Of a stretch of DNA of 48,884 bases, positions 1 to 8,166 are shown in pieces. The notes under the pieces were generated by a model. That model saw only the letters and a program-made list of their open reading frames with translations. It was not told the DNA's origin and searched no databases. How positions within the stretch are numbered: the stretch's first letter is position 1; each line of letters opens with the position of its first letter. A program made the position numbers and the translations under genes. The DNA lies in the NCBI GenBank assembly GCA_963977445.1, contig CAXBPH010000009.1, positions 1-48,884 of the forward strand, given 5' to 3'. The stretch is from an uncultured bacterium (GTDB lineage: Bacteria > Hydrogenedentota > Hydrogenedentia > Hydrogenedentales > JAEUWI01).

Positions 1-769
1 CGTCCATGCCCTTGTCGTATATCTTGATCTTTTCTTCCATGCTGAGATCATCCCACACCAGCATTTTTCGATCGCCGCCTACCATGATACGGCGGAGCTT
101 TACCGGGGCGAGCCAGTTGAGGTGTAGGTGGGCCATGAAGTTATCTTCATAAAAGAGCGTAACATAGGCCATATCTTCCAGGCCGGTGCCAAAATGGTCG
201 GCACCATGGGCGCTCACCGCCACGGGCAGGGTGGGCAGGAGGTAGTGAAGGATGGAGAAATCGTGGGGAGCCAGATCCCAGACCACGTTTACATCGCGCT
301 GGTAAATGCCCAGATTCACCCGGGCCGAGTCGTAGTAGAAGAGCTTACCCAGTTCCTCTTGCTCGATGGCCCGTTTCATCAATTGGACCGCACCGGTAAA
401 CAAGAAGGTGTGGTCCACCATGAGGACCCGCTTTTTTTCTGCGGCCAGCTCCACGAGAATGCGGGCTTCTTCGGCGGTGGTGGTCATGGGTTTTTCGAGA
501 AAGACGTGTTTGCCAGCTTCGAGACTGGCCTGTGCCAGTTTGAAGTGGGTGGAGACGGGCGTCGCGATGGCAATGGCATTGACCCGTTCGTCGACAATGA
601 CCGCTTCCGCTTCCGCCACATGGGCGTTGGGATAGGCCGTTTTGGCCAGCGTTCGTTGCCCTTCGTCGGCGTCGGCAATGGCAAAGAGGGTGCAATCCGG
701 GTTGCCATTAAAATTGCGCGCGAGATTGGGTCCCCAATATCCGAAACCGATCAGTCCCACATTCAGCAT
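1..769 (-). CDS. Gfo/Idh/MocA family NAD(P)-dependent oxidoreductase (3' end runs off the window)
   Basis: Manual translation from ATG at 769 gives MLNVGLIGFGYWGPNLARNF (Rossmann GxGxxG), later HVFLEKP and WDLAPHD. It is absent from the ORF track because the stop is outside the window. Confidence 0.88.
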   Translation of the reverse strand, partial: MLNVGLIGFGYWGPNLARNFNGNPDCTLFAIADADEGQRTLAKTAYPNAHVAEAEAVIVDERVNAIAIATPVSTHFKLAQASLEAGKHVFLEKPMTTTAEEARILVELAAEKKRVLMVDHTFLFTGAVQLMKRAIEQEELGKLFYYDSARVNLGIYQRDVNVVWDLAPHDFSILHYLLPTLPVAVSAHGADHFGTGLEDMAYVTLFYEDNFMAHLHLNWLAPVKLRRIMVGGDRKMLVWDDLSMEEKIKIYDKGMD

Positions 770-3256: not shown

Positions 3257-4138
3257 ATGAAAAAGTCTGGTTTCACACTCATCGAATTGCTGGTCGTAAT
3301 CGCGATCATTGGTATCCTCGCCGCAATCCTGCTGCCCGCCCTGGCCCGTGCCCGGGAAGCCGCGCGTCGCACGAGCTGCCAGAACAATCTTAAACAGCTT
3401 GGCCTCGTCTTCAAGATGTACGCAAATGAGTCCGAAGGCGAAAGCTTCCCCCCCATGAAGGTCTATAACTGCCAGGATGATATCCAGGCCGTTAACGCCA
3501 TTTTTCAGGGCGAACTTATTTTCCCCGAATACTTGACCGACTGGGACGTACTCGTATGCCCAAGTGCCTCCGGCGGCGGCACGGCTGTTAAAATCTGGGA
3601 CGAAGGCAGCACGAACAGCCCCCTCTGGATTGATATCGTTGACTTCAGCAACAATGGCGTCGTTGAGCCCTGCGAAATCATCTCCGGTCCCTACTACTAC
3701 TATGGCTACGCACTTAGCGACACCATGTTTGAGACCACCGCAGACTTCGACAACTTTAAGCTTGCCGTCGAAGGCCTGAAGGACCTCATCGAAAACGTAG
3801 ACCCCAACGCGGTTTCCAGCGATTGGTTCCTGGAAGACATTTCCTCCAACCCAGTCCCAATTAACGGCACGGACACGGCCCTCCGCCTTCGTGAAGGTAT
3901 TGAGCGCTTTCTCATCACCGACATCAACAACGCGGCTGCCGGTGCACAGGCTCAGTCCACCCTGGTTGTCATGTTCGACGGTATCGCCGACAACACCTAC
4001 GACTTCAACCACATCCCCGGTGGTTCCAACGTTCTCTACATGGATGGCCACGTGGAATTCCTGAAGTATGAGTCCGCTTCTGCCGGAACCTTCCCCCTCA
4101 ATCAGGCCGGCCTCGACCTCTACGCTGCCGGTCAATAA
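3257..4138 (+). CDS. Prepilin-type N-terminal cleavage/methylation protein, DUF1559 family (paralog 1)
   Basis: [50 protein letters not shown] and C-terminal H-X9-DG motif [22 protein letters not shown] upstream. Confidence 0.93.
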
Positions 4139-4191
4139 TACAAATCGCCTGGTGTACATAGCTGGCTGAGCTGTCCTCAGCCGCCCTGCGG

Positions 4192-4228
4192 GGCCTGGTC
4201 CAACCGGACCAGGCCTCTCTTGGTTTTT
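4192..4228 (+). terminator. Intrinsic terminator after DUF1559 paralog 1
   Basis: Perfect 10-bp stem GGCCTGGTCC-AACC-GGACCAGGCC followed by a T-rich tail. Confidence 0.7.
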
Positions 4229-4277
4229 ATGTGGGGTCTACGATGGCGTTACCTTGCTCTGGGCACTCTATCGTGAT

Positions 4278-4306
4278 TTGACAGGCCTCACTCCGGGTGC
4301 TACTAT
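4278..4306 (+). promoter_or_regulatory. sigma70-type promoter for the uORF and DUF1559 paralog 2
   Basis: TTGACA (4278-4283), 17-nt spacer with extended -10 TG, TACTAT (4301-4306). Confidence 0.75.
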
Positions 4307-4342
4307 TAAGAATGCAATGTCATTAAGGATGGAATCTCGACC

Positions 4343-4618
4343 GTGAAACTGAGTGTGACGCAACGAAAAATGGCCCTGTTGGGTGTGGGACTGCTGCTGG
4401 CGGTCGCCATACTGCTGGGCGGCGTGCACCATCACGACGGGGACCATGGCTGCTGGTTTTGTCTGACCGCAGCCTTCTGTGTACTGGCTGTTGCCGTACT
4501 GGCACTCTTTGCGCCCAAGAACTACGCTACCCTTATTCACGTCGACGTGACCCCCATACCTTCCTGGTTTCTATGGGTCACCCATCGCCATCGGGGCCCC
4601 CCGGCACGCCACGGATAA
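4343..4618 (+). CDS. Small DUF2946/CruR-like leader peptide (putative metal-sensing ribosome-arrest uORF)
   Basis: 91 aa with a GTG start and AAGGA upstream. Hydrophobic segment, HHHDGDHGCWFC (His cluster plus CxxC), second hydrophobic segment, and C-terminal HRHRGPP. Confidence 0.7.
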   Translation: MKLSVTQRKMALLGVGLLLAVAILLGGVHHHDGDHGCWFCLTAAFCVLAVAVLALFAPKNYATLIHVDVTPIPSWFLWVTHRHRGPPARHG

Positions 4619-4859
4619 ATCTGTCGCGTATCCACGGAATAGCTATTCCCATGCATCAGCCCACATCCGCAGCAATTGCTGAAATCCGTCCCCGAGTAAT
4701 TTGACCCCCCGTCGAATATCTACGCTACCCGTGTAGCCCGGTGACCATCAGCATGCCCACCGCGGAAGAGTTGTGGACCGTTGCCCCTGCCATTCTGTGC
4801 GCGCGACCCCATCCCTTGTTTTGCCACCCTCAATTTTTCCCCGAATGGAGATCGTTACC

Positions 4860-5759
4860 ATGCGTCGCACTGGTTTTACCCTCATTGAATTGCTTGTCGT
4901 TATCGCCATCATTGGCATTCTTGCAGCCATCTTACTGCCCGCCCTGGCCCGTGCCCGGGAAGCAGCCCGCCGCGCCAGTTGTCAGAATAACCTCAAACAA
5001 ATGGGCATCGTCTATAAGATGTATGCCAACGAAGCACCCGGCGAGAAATTTCCGAGTATGAAAGTCCTCAATTGCGAAGACGATATCCAGCCCTGGAACG
5101 CCGTTTTCGACCCCAATCAGATCTATCCCGAATACCTCACAGATCTCGACACCCTCATTTGCCCCAGTAGCGCCAATGGTGCCACCGCACTCGAGCACTG
5201 GGACGAAGGCAAAACGCCCAGCCCCCTGTGGACAGAAATCGTCGGTTTCAGCAACAACGGCATTGTAGAGCCCTGCGAAATAAACGTAGAGCCTTACTAT
5301 TACTATGGTTACGCCCTGTCCGACACCATGTTCAAGGAGACGATAGACTTCACCAATTTTGAAGCCGCTGTTGAAGCCCTGGCGAATGTGGTTTCCAGCG
5401 GATTCATTGAAGCCGTCGACGCTGATTGGCCCATGGAAGACGACCTGGGCAACCCTACCCCGGTTGGTGGCCAGGCTACAGTATTGCGCCTCCGTGAAGG
5501 CATCGAGCGTTTCTTTATTACGGATATCAATAACGCGGCGGCAAGCAGCGTGGCGCAATCGGTTATCACGGTCATGCACGATGCCATTTCCGAGGAAGCC
5601 GCCCACTACAATCACGTACCTGGGGGTTCCAATGTGCTCTATATGGATGGACACGTGGAATTCATCAAATATACCGGTGCATTCAACGGAAAGTTTCCCA
5701 TAAATCATGCGGGTTTTGTGCTGCACGAAGCCGGTGAAGGGGGACACGTTCACCTATAA
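4860..5759 (+). CDS. Prepilin-type N-terminal cleavage/methylation protein, DUF1559 family (paralog 2)
   Basis: [34 protein letters not shown] and a His-containing tail [11 protein letters not shown]. Colinear with paralog 1 along its whole length. GGAG RBS before ATG 4860. Confidence 0.93.
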
Positions 5760-6037
5760 CGCAAACGACCCAGGGAATGTCCCCGGCTCTTCTGGCGTGG
5801 TGTCTTGCATCGCGCCGAGGCCGGGGGCACCCTGTTTTAAAGGGGATTGGTGTTCCTGGGGTAGAAAATAGCCCGCCCCGCCACGAATGGGAGCGGGGGC
5901 CATATTGGAGCTTCAAAAATAAAATTGTTAAATCGATAAGAATATTGGTACACTATGAACTTAGTGTCAGATACGTACTTCCACCAGTGCCTCTGATTTT
6001 CACCCCAATAATGCAAAAGAATACAAAGGATAAGAAT

Positions 6038-6641: not shown

Positions 6642-6946
6642 ATTGACCTGAAAATAGTAGATGTCGGGGTGAACAAGGCTACGGTGGCTTCCCACAACGT
6701 CGGTCATTCTCGTGGTGCCCCGGGTGTTGCTTTTGTTACCCTGGGCGGTGGTGAATATATTGACCTGAAAATAGTAGATGCCGTGGTGCCACCCGATCCG
6801 GTACTCCGGTTCGGGTGCCTTGAGCCTCGTTCACGGTATGGCTTGGGAGATGACTCGGAGTTGGCCTTGTTTCTTTTTGGGTGGATGTCGTGGTAAACAA
6901 GGCTACGGTGTGGTTCAATTATGTCCGTAGACCTCGTGGGTCAAGG
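6642..6946. repeat. Left mosaic repeat flank of the RAYT gene (REP/REPIN-like)
   Basis: ATTGACCTGAAAATAGTAGATG at 6642 and 6759, plus blocks re-used on the right flank (6675-6715 = 8059-8099; 6896-6946 = 7697-7747). Confidence 0.85.
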
Positions 6947-6989
6947 GTGAATCTTATAGCAGATACGGTAGCTTCATGAGGAACACGTC

Positions 6990-7559
6990 ATGGTCGTGCG
7001 CAGAGTCTATCGGAAGTCTCGGAGAACATTAAATACCGAAGGAGAGGCCCACTTTGTAACATTCTCCTGTTTCCAACGTCGTCCTTTTTTGTCTCGTGAC
7101 CGAACTCGGGAGTATTTCGTCGCGGGCATGGAGCGTATGCGCAGTCGGCATGAAGTCAATATCTGGGCCTACGTTGTTATGCCCGAACATGTTCACCTGC
7201 TAATCTACCCGGTGTACGCGGACTATAAGATGGAGAAAATTCTGGCCACGCTCAAGCTTTCCGTTTCTCGAAGAGCCCTCGGGTATCTACGAAAGCACAA
7301 TCCTGCGGGTCTGCGGCATCTAAGCACGGGGCAAGTGCACACGCCATACCGATTTTGGTTGGCTGGCGGGGGTTACGACCGGAATACGGTTTCCTTCGGG
7401 GCATTGAAAAATATGATCGAATATATTCACAACAATCCGGTACGACGTGGGTTGGCGCAGGACGCTTTGGAGTGGAAGTGGTCCAGTGCGCAAGAATGGA
7501 ATGCGGAAGGGGGTGGGCCACTGCGGATAGACAGGGACACCTTGCCACCGTTGAAGTAG
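6990..7559 (+). CDS. REP-associated tyrosine transposase (RAYT/TnpA-REP, Y1 HUH family)
   Basis: HFVTFSC, WAYVVMPEHVHLL (HUH), FW..GGYDR, EYIHNNPVRRGL (catalytic Tyr plus NPVxxG) and WKWSS. Confidence 0.88.
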   Translation: MVVRRVYRKSRRTLNTEGEAHFVTFSCFQRRPFLSRDRTREYFVAGMERMRSRHEVNIWAYVVMPEHVHLLIYPVYADYKMEKILATLKLSVSRRALGYLRKHNPAGLRHLSTGQVHTPYRFWLAGGGYDRNTVSFGALKNMIEYIHNNPVRRGLAQDALEWKWSSAQEWNAEGGGPLRIDRDTLPPLK

Positions 7560-7589
7560 GGATGGGGGGTGCGGACCATGTGGGCAGGT

Positions 7590-8126
7590 ATTAACCTGAA
7601 AATAGTAGATGTTGTGGTGTTCTTGGCCTGATTCACGTTTGGCCTGGGAAATGGTTCGGAGTTGGCCTTGTATCTCTTTGGGTGGACGGCGGGGTGAACA
7701 AGGCTACGGTGTGGTTCAATTATGTCCGTAGACCTCGTGGGTCAAGGCACCCGAACGTGCTGTTTGAGTCCATAGTGGTAGACCGGGAGGTGTGGGTGGG
7801 TCGGTTGTGTAATTTGGGGCGGGGGTGTTCTATAGGCACGATCGGGTGGCACCCGGGGTATGCTTTTGTTGTCCTGGGCGATGGGGCATGCATTGACCTG
7901 AAAATAGTAGATGCCGTGGTGCCACCCGATCCGGTACTCCCGGTCGAAGATCCGTCGCAGGAGGATTCGGGTGCCTTGAGCCTGGTTCATGGTATGTCTT
8001 GGGAGATGACTCGGAGTTGGCCTTGTATCTCTTTGGGTGGACGGCGGGGTGAACAAGGAAGGCTACGGTGGCTTCCCACAACGTCGGTCATTCTCGTGGG
8101 TCAAGGCACCCGGGGGTTGCTTTTGT
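7590..8126. repeat. Right mosaic repeat flank of the RAYT gene (REP/REPIN-like)
   Basis: Further copies of the 22-mer at 7590 and 7892. Inverted pairs GATCGGGTGGCACC/GGTGCCACCCGATC (7840/7918) and CGGGTGCCTTGA/TCAAGGCACCCG (7968/8101). Confidence 0.85.
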
Positions 8127-8166
8127 GGCCCTGACCGGTGGGGCTCGTTACCGGGAGTGGGAGCAG

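Follow-up and report, generated by a model that had tools for sequence, protein, structure and literature searches.

The DNA analyzed here, referred to as the window, is a 48,884-nt stretch of the forward strand of contig CAXBPH010000009.1 from an uncultured bacterium (assembly GCA_963977445.1; Hydrogenedentota, Hydrogenedentales, JAEUWI01 in the Genome Taxonomy Database, GTDB). Two tandem genes near its start encode prepilin-like DUF1559 proteins, paralogs 1 and 2, and the second is preceded by a 91-codon open reading frame (ORF), here called the leader. Our subject is this leader, which resembles the copper-sensing leader peptides CruR and CutF of the DUF2946 class, and its relationship to paralog 2, whose expression it may control in cis. 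Positions 4278–5834 are best explained as one predicted transcription unit comprising a promoter, the leader, a 241-nt spacer, a single DUF1559 prepilin-like gene and a terminator hairpin (Table 1).

Table 1. Features of the leader locus. Nucleotide positions count from the first letter of the window; residues are those of the leader peptide.
Feature	Position	Strand	Evidence or remarks
DUF1559 paralog 1, 293 aa; tandem sister, without leader	3257..4138	+	ORF list, Pfam and NCBIfam matches
Terminator-like hairpin and T-run, closing the paralog 1 unit	4190..4226 (hairpin 4190–4217)	+	12 pairs, 9 of them G-C, then TCTTGGTTTT
Sigma-70-like promoter, TTGACA-17-TACTAT	4278..4306	+	10/12 matches, TG extension
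Leader ORF, 91 aa, GTG start; CruR/CutF-like candidate arrest peptide	4343..4618	+	ORF list, conservation
Leader, first transmembrane segment (TM1)	residues ~10–27		hydropathy peak, 3 Lys/Arg before it
Leader, His3 (H29 H30 H31)	4427–4435		
Leader, CWFC (residues 37–40)	4451–4462		
Leader, second transmembrane segment (TM2)	residues ~41–57		
Leader, RGPP (residues 84–87), four residues before stop	4592–4603		
Leader stop codon	4616–4618		
Spacer, 241 nt; C 35%, G 21%; sequence poorly conserved	4619..4859	+	
Shine-Dalgarno TGGAG of paralog 2, 9 nt 5′ of ATG; predicted base-paired	4846..4850	+	invariant in 9/9 genus loci
DUF1559 paralog 2, 299 aa, prepilin-type; putative controlled gene	4860..5759	+	Pfam/NCBIfam profiles
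Strong hairpin, then GUUUU; probable unit end	5771..5834	+	−48.7 kcal/mol, z −4.8, 0/200 shuffles as good

The leader is the first gene of the unit: a terminator and a promoter lie 5′ of it, and the next gene on the same strand follows after a long spacer. The promoter had been singled out in an initial annotation of this DNA and is indeed present, with a −35 hexamer that is invariant, and a TAnnAT −10 element 17 nt further on, in all nine aligned loci of the genus. By count alone it does not stand above chance (2 promoter-like matches between 3000 and 6300, 2.5 expected). The terminator-like hairpin after paralog 1 occupies the same place in the genus alignment, as judged by eye, and no Rfam family matches positions 4150–5000 at E ≤ 1. 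Between the −10 element and the leader, two genus members (loci L006 and L007) carry a perfect 7-bp inverted repeat, ATTGAGA-N6-TCTCAAT, which is partly kept in other members and not clearly so in the window; this repeat may serve as the operator of a further transcriptional regulator.

The leader has a short basic N terminus, a hydrophobic segment, the stretch HHHDGDHGCWFC (residues 29–40), a second hydrophobic segment and a basic tail, HRHRGPPARHG. This is the arrangement of two membrane segments around a Cys/His loop, followed by HRHRGPP, that the initial annotation had described. The membrane segments are assigned from hydropathy, and two Kyte-Doolittle peaks are seen in all nine orthologues. 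A six-frame search recovered the leader from all eight other genomes of the genus (39–56% identity). H29, H30, H31, C37, W38, C40, T42, R84, P86 and P87 are invariant in the nine-sequence alignment, and frame and motifs are preserved throughout, so the conservation on which the idea of a translated leader depended is real. The invariant residues are encoded by different synonymous codons from genome to genome, which indicates that selection acts on the peptide. The stretch from Cys to Arg is poorly conserved in sequence, yet its length (42–43 residues) varies by one residue at most. The GTG start aligns with the start codons chosen for the eight orthologues (seven ATG, one GTG). Among 5.8 billion proteins, a profile of the nine leaders matched only 17 clusters, two of which are named ‘Candidatus Hydrogenedentes bacterium’ by NCBI. 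A five-codon mini-ORF (ATG...TGA, 4329–4346) lies just 5′ of the leader, its TGA overlapping the GTG start (GTGA). In two relatives (L008 and L011) a start codon at this place is in frame with the leader, so the true start or the coupling arrangement may differ between species.

It is hardly credible that this frame is open by chance within the 5′ leader of paralog 2. The promoter-like match that is no better than chance by count and the sub-threshold Pfam match described below would both fit such an origin, but the comparative data contradict it: the frame and motifs are kept with synonymous codon changes in 9/9 genomes and the same layout recurs in eight families of the order. A loose regular expression for the leader gave 18 matches in the whole genome, of which only two look like proteins in our own reading, and both precede prepilin genes.

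The leader appears to belong, as a divergent relative, with the copper-sensing leaders CruR and CutF (DUF2946). No Pfam family other than PF11162, that of DUF2946, is hit by two or more of the orthologues (for PF11162, 8/9 at E ≤ 1, best 2.5 × 10⁻⁵), and two orthologues reach the PF11162 cut-off once neighboring in-frame matches from the six-frame search are added. The window leader aligns with the C-terminal half of the profile (positions 57–117 of 117), the half that holds CxxC and RAPP. A precomputed PF11162 annotation is found on 4 of the 17 database relatives. The hidden Markov model comparison proposed in the initial annotation thus links the orthologue group to PF11162, while the window ORF itself stays below the cut-off.

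The CruR family, as defined by Roy et al. 2022 (PMC9426467), has an export signal, a CxxC and, three residues short of its end, RAPP; its members come first in the operon and are followed by a long spacer. The N-terminal export signal or Nin-Cout membrane segment is predicted for the leader by hydropathy, C37, W38 and C40 of CWFC are invariant in 9/9, and so are R84, P86 and P87 of RGPP. Among 45 cases from the order, the C-terminal motif is RGPP in 23, RAPP in 17, RPPP in 3 and RSPP in 2, with tails of 1–8 residues. CxxC and RxPP are 43 residues apart in the window and 42–45 apart in 45/45 cases (the selection filter allowed 38–52), compared with a published norm of 45 plus or minus 1–2 residues (PMC9426467). 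RGPP is reported to arrest as strongly as RAPP and to be refractory to elongation factor P (EF-P; Fujiwara et al. 2025, PMC12992588), and in vitro toeprints of CruR show arrest with one of the two Pro codons in the P site and the other in the A site (PMC12992588). The initial annotation had ascribed CxxC with a RAPP-like motif to CutF as well; this was mistaken, as CutF has CxxxC and a proline-rich tail.

Association of such leaders with prepilin-type genes was surveyed from both sides. A PF11162 search of 133 genomes from the order gave 58 places at E ≤ 0.01, all of which were fetched. A CxxC...RxPP ORF is present at 46 of them; the other 12 lack a qualifying ORF (stop codons, contig ends, spurious matches). 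A prepilin-type gene lies downstream of 41 of the 46 ORFs, at a distance of 86–331 nt in 39 pairs. In the remaining two, one gene is 66 nt downstream and has a variant motif, and one stands behind a second tandem leader-like ORF. By our reading of the survey, the pairs span 8 of the 13 families of the order. For comparison, a prepilin motif occurs within 600 nt downstream of only 151 of 69,826 open frames of 50–300 aa (0.2%) in the window genome, which has 45 such motifs in 7.1 Mb. To avoid circularity, a second survey was seeded with the target: the order was searched with paralog 2, and the DNA upstream of the 60 top-scoring matches was read. An RxPP-tailed ORF lies within 600 nt upstream in 46 of these 60 closest homologues; the initial annotation had proposed a screen of DUF1559 genes for upstream CxxC...R[AG]PP ORFs. 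These leaders comprise 39 with CxxC and R[AGSP]PP, four with CxxC and RDPP (L108, L111, L112 and L120, CxxC at 44 residues), and three with RGPP and no CxxC (L095, L096 and L118), two of them His-rich. Nine of the 60 genes are paralog-1-type copies, and none of these has a leader. The pairing of leader and DUF1559 gene is not due to chance. Individual loci show variations on the arrangement: L063 has two successive leader and DUF1559 modules in tandem on one contig, L068 has two leader-like ORFs in a row before one prepilin gene, and the prepilin motif of L082 is the variant FTLTELLVV.

The same genome contains a second module, on contig C374. Its leader, CAFC...(44 residues)...RAPPA (L002 1381–1743), is at the Pfam cut-off, and a DUF1559 gene (L002 1923–2867) follows 179 nt on, with a Met/Gly-rich tail, ...GTMGMLGGGMVHP, which suggests another metal or oxidation state than in the window module. 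No RxPP-tailed ORF besides 4343–4618 was found on contig C9, the contig of the window. A PF11162 match on contig C58 was judged spurious from its sequence, being an anti-sigma-like protein beside a sigma factor.

Pairing alone would also fit a functional partner, and the 91-aa product could be a stable small membrane protein, such as a metal chaperone or a pilin assembly partner, whose RGPP has no regulatory role. Two predicted TM segments could anchor such a protein, and public collections list its gene as protein-coding. We nevertheless regard this as very unlikely. RxPP is kept 1–8 residues from the stop codon and 42–45 residues from CxxC across very divergent leaders, and constancy of position and distance over an intervening sequence that is itself unconserved argues for a constraint of ribosome geometry. 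For CutF, moreover, degradation follows export, and the protein escapes detection in vivo (PMC9973294).

Paralog 2 matches PF07596 (DUF1559, E = 2 × 10⁻¹¹), PF07963 (N_methyl, E = 5.8 × 10⁻⁸) and TIGR04294 (HX9DG, E = 1.5 × 10⁻⁶), all above cut-off. The gene downstream of the leader is therefore the DUF1559 paralog that the initial annotation had named, and encodes a prepilin-like protein and not a TonB-dependent transporter. An AlphaFold2 model of the product has a mean predicted local distance difference test score (pLDDT) of 86.3 and a predicted template modeling score (pTM) of 0.83. Foldseek returned nothing from the PDB at E ≤ 0.001; every one of the seven top structural matches is a type IV pilin or pseudopilin, at weak scores (Z 3.9–5.0, root-mean-square deviation 3.0–3.8 Å over 80–121 residues).

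The genes that follow leaders appear to form one DUF1559 clade that has gained candidate metal ligands (His or Met at 249, His289, and HExxH-like or Met-rich tails). In paralog 2 the residues concerned are His249-x2-His252, Asp263-Gly264-His265 and His289. An alignment of 41 complete targets shows H252, D263, G264, H265 and H289 to be invariant and H249 to be conserved in at least 90%; HxxH stands before the PGG of the HX9DG motif in 40. Their tails have [LFIV]HE in 31 and HExxH in 22, and further tail types are Met/Gly-rich (4) and H[SN][IM]E (5). Targets of three RDPP leaders (L108, L111, L120) have Met at position 249 and LH(V/M)QAMG...H tails, and that of the fourth (L112) has His at 249 and a HELAH tail. 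Cysteines C41 and C139 are invariant and C72 and C101 at least 90% conserved among the 41. The window genome has ~35 HX9DG paralogues, of which only the two preceded by a leader have His249 and an LH tail. In a quick maximum likelihood tree of 79 proteins, the 41 targets group with 7 paralog-1 copies, apart from all 31 further paralogues of the window genome, with a Shimodaira–Hasegawa-like approximate likelihood ratio (SH-aLRT) of 89. The product of paralog 2 probably binds the metal that the leader would sense.

Paralog 1 is identical to paralog 2 at 193 of 299 positions (65%), but has Asp at the position of His249, Tyr at that of His289, and ends in ...LYAAGQ. The same quick tree places the paralog-1 copies as a clade (support 98) within the target clade, next to the genus targets. 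Paralog 1 thus looks like a recent duplicate that has lost both ligands and leader.

Arrest peptides need not respond to metal. The leader could instead respond to the force of membrane insertion or to the capacity for oxidative folding (Sec/YidC or Dsb), with arrest released by insertion of TM2 or by oxidation of CxxC, so that output of a disulfide-containing prepilin would be matched to export and folding, as for SecM, MifM and VemP. A hydrophobic segment directly follows CxxC in all nine genus orthologues, the targets have the four conserved cysteines described above, RAPP/RGPP upstream ORFs (uORFs) are also enriched before sec and DsbA/thioredoxin genes (PMC12992588), and the three RGPP leaders that precede target-type genes without a CxxC would suit such a sensor. 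Against this, the invariant His3 and the acidic residues next to CxxC are metal-type motifs that would be superfluous in a sensor of force or redox state, and His-rich stretches of metal type occur in most leaders of the order. Only the ligand-bearing DUF1559 clade has the leader, whereas ~33 further prepilin-type paralogues in this genome, dependent on the same route of export, lack it. The Pfam link, too, is to DUF2946. We consider a sensor of force or redox state distinctly unlikely.

The interpretation we favor is that the leader is a divergent nascent-chain metal sensor of the CruR/CutF class that controls in cis a DUF1559 gene of the ligand-bearing clade. The peptide would insert co-translationally into the membrane as a two-helix hairpin, with a short outward loop that carries the three invariant His, acidic residues and CWxC. 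The ribosome would pause at R-G-P-P, 43 residues past the cysteines and four codons before stop. Residue counts place the His3/CWFC loop 44–58 residues from the peptidyl-transferase center at this point, which would be just outside the exit tunnel, at the membrane, while the second hydrophobic segment would still be emerging. The fixed spacing in the family suggests that the geometry of the pause matters. Metal bound to the loop would then lengthen or shorten the arrest and so set downstream expression in cis, as judged from the family. The sign differs between the prototypes: copper relieves the arrest of CruR and induces that of CutF (10.1101/2025.02.05.636593).

Copper would be the metal suggested by family precedent, and the Met-rich tail of the C374 type would fit Cu(I). 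Zn, Ni or Co would be equally compatible with His-rich loops and HExxH-like tails. DUF2946 genes are included in a Caulobacter Zur data set (PMC4176598).

Two ways of reading out the arrest were weighed. Unmasking of the ribosome-binding site, as in CutF, is our tentative assignment in a rough split, at somewhat short of even odds. Here the invariant Shine-Dalgarno (SD) sequence, predicted to be paired, speaks in its favor: in the window the pairing probability is ~1 at three of the four GGAG bases and 0.00 at the third base, and in the other eight genus members it is at least 0.61 at all four. The SD is predicted to be paired in all nine, with opening energies of 7.3–13 kcal/mol (7.3 in the window). 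In the minimum-energy fold of the window it pairs with codons just 5′ of RGPP, and the stall zone comes out as the best anti-SD (rank p ≤ 0.01) in three of the four relatives nearest to the window. Rho-dependent attenuation, as in CruR, is possible although doubtful in the same split, in which other mechanisms take the smallest share. The long spacer with C in excess of G and the presence of a rho gene (684 bits) point to it; GC skew is negative from ~4460 to ~4960. Genus spacers are 201–242 nt long, whereas many leaders in the order have spacers of 71–120 nt, which counts against Rho. The visibly C-rich spacer of ~240 nt that the initial annotation had stressed is real in the window, but C-richness is not a feature of its relatives. 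The C/G ratio of 1.70 is the highest of 45 cases, whose median is 1.20, and the other eight genus members have 0.95–1.46.

Several observations weigh against the proposed control by a metal-sensing leader. The window leader scores 17.5 bits (E 0.0072) against PF11162, below the gathering score of 23.7, and two unrelated transmembrane families slightly outscore PF11162 on it. None of the ORFs between 1 and 12000 is a metal-homeostasis gene by our own reading of the ORF list. Indexed sequencing runs list no RNA run for the stretch, and one DNA run containing a 0.05 share of its words. Five of the 46 leader-type ORFs precede a small membrane protein and an ATP-binding cassette (ABC)-type ATPase instead of a prepilin gene, that is, ABC-transporter operons, and five of the 60 target-type genes have no detectable leader. 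Related genomes in both surveys are not independent observations. As to the read-out, the best anti-SD coincides with the stall zone (rank p ≤ 0.1) in only 11 of 45 cases, versus 4.5 expected (window p 0.17). A modeled stalled-ribosome footprint lowers the SD opening energy of the window by only 1.3 kcal/mol (7.3 to 6.0); in the genus it lowers it by 1.1–3.9 kcal/mol in five of nine members and has no effect in four. Marked C-richness of the spacer is confined to the window and weak in relatives, which counts against Rho attenuation as well. What is observed on the other side is that the peptide and its motifs are conserved, that their spacing is fixed, that the pairing emerges from both directions and that the targets share a ligand pattern. 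From these, and from what is known of the family, we infer that the leader arrests the ribosome and senses a metal, with copper as the candidate by precedent beside Zn, Ni or Co, and with a response of either sign. We put the probability that a CruR/CutF-class metal sensor controls the DUF1559 gene in cis at roughly 0.72. The ABC-type pairings (L036, L060, L070, L073 and L083, three of them in the window’s genus) form another target class of the leader family.

Among the closest known systems is CruR (Bp2923, upstream of bfrG in Bordetella pertussis; PMC9426467), the prototype of PF11162. Like the window leader, it is a first ORF with an N-terminal export or membrane signal, CxxC, and Arg-x-Pro-Pro a few residues before stop, at a spacing of about 45 (43 here). 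Both are followed by a long spacer with more C than G (162 nt for CruR, 241 nt here). CruR has 145 aa and RAPP, the window leader 91 aa and RGPP. Unlike CruR, the window leader lies below the Pfam cut-off and has its metal loop between two hydrophobic segments, with the invariant His3. The target of CruR is a TonB-dependent transporter, and that of the leader would be a prepilin-like DUF1559 protein. CutF (upstream of cutO in Rhodobacter capsulatus; PMC9973294, 10.1101/2025.02.05.636593) is a co-translationally exported DUF2946-class leader that acts only in cis. Its stalling unmasks the ribosome-binding site of the next gene, a role for which the predicted pairing of the SD in 9/9 genus members offers a parallel. 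CutF differs in having CxxxC and a tail rich in proline, and in that a short stem-loop sits right on its SD, where the genus has a spacer of 201–242 nt; in addition, the predicted stalled footprint frees the window SD weakly, and pairing of stall site and SD is enriched in only 11/45 cases. The force-sensing arrest peptides SecM, MifM, VemP and ApdA/ApdP (PMC12992588, PMC10951233) share an R-A/G-P-P type motif, a small exported or membrane peptide and control in cis. They monitor Sec or YidC, precede sec or yidC genes and, unlike the window leader, have no conserved His/Cys metal loop.

The initial annotation presented the pairing with DUF1559 as one not known to be described. It is in print: Fig. 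4B source data of Fujiwara et al. 2025 (EMBO J, PMC12992588) list DUF1559 downstream of 112 RAPP uORFs versus 68 AAPP controls (6.46-fold, adjusted p 1 × 10⁻³¹), ‘DUF1559 domain-containing protein’ being one of 30 enriched downstream classes. That class shows the same pairing, and its listed peptides are His/Cys-rich and end in RAPP. The pairing is not discussed there, as the main text of the paper does not mention DUF1559, pilin or prepilin and contains no analysis of the targets. The interpretation in the initial annotation was right in kind, in that a conserved DUF2946-type leader, probably a metal-sensing arrest peptide, is paired with a DUF1559 gene, and overtaken as to novelty; Rho termination, the choice of metal and a role of the target in metal acquisition are its more speculative parts. 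Roy et al. 2022 (PMC9426467) refer to ‘a few’ Planctomycetes homologues, and their text on these mentions no pilin-like neighbors; three of the supplements to that paper contain no N_methyl, SBP_bac_10 or DUF1559 term. A literature search combining DUF1559 with arrest found no paper, and among the literature found to mention DUF1559 none concerns metals. The present analysis adds a leader subfamily with RGPP, two helices and His3, as well as a survey seeded with the target. It also shows that the putatively controlled genes fall into a single clade set apart by additional conserved His/Met residues as candidate ligands, and that paralog 2 has a tandem sister lacking both ligands and leader.

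Zur-type regulation switches between metal-binding and metal-free paralogues, for example of ribosomal proteins. The tandem pair in the window, 65% identical, with one member that keeps its ligands and only one under control of a metal type, offers an analogy and no more; unlike in Zur switching, control here would lie in a nascent-peptide leader and not in a repressor. We think it unlikely, though worth stating, that a joint reading holds in full, in which the clade comprises metal-binding pseudopilins that a machine of the type II secretion or type IV pilus kind displays or cycles and that capture or handle a transition metal at the envelope, their synthesis being set by the nascent-chain sensor and paralog 1 being a metal-independent isoform. 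If so, ribosome arrest and not a repressor would drive a metal-sparing switch between isoforms at this locus. DUF1559/HX9DG proteins are abundant in Planctomycetes and relatives too, and they occur in dozens of copies per genome in the present lineage (~35 in the window genome). Control by a metal-sensing leader would give a first functional clue, metal, for part of this large, uncharacterized family, and would extend nascent-chain metal sensing to a new target class and a new phylum. The ligand pattern provides a hypothesis that can be tested at the bench, namely that the controlled DUF1559 clade binds metal.

Two further observations concern the DNA downstream of the unit. Beyond an AT-rich gap, an ORF on the + strand from 6039 is cold-shock-protein-like, a name given from its sequence pattern. 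Similar translations (...IDLKIVDAVVPPDPVL...) at ~6669–6930 and ~7682–8134 flank a 189-aa ORF at 6990–7559, which we take to resemble a transposase of the tyrosine type associated with repetitive extragenic palindromic (REP) elements; the region 6669–8134 may be a repeat/transposase element.

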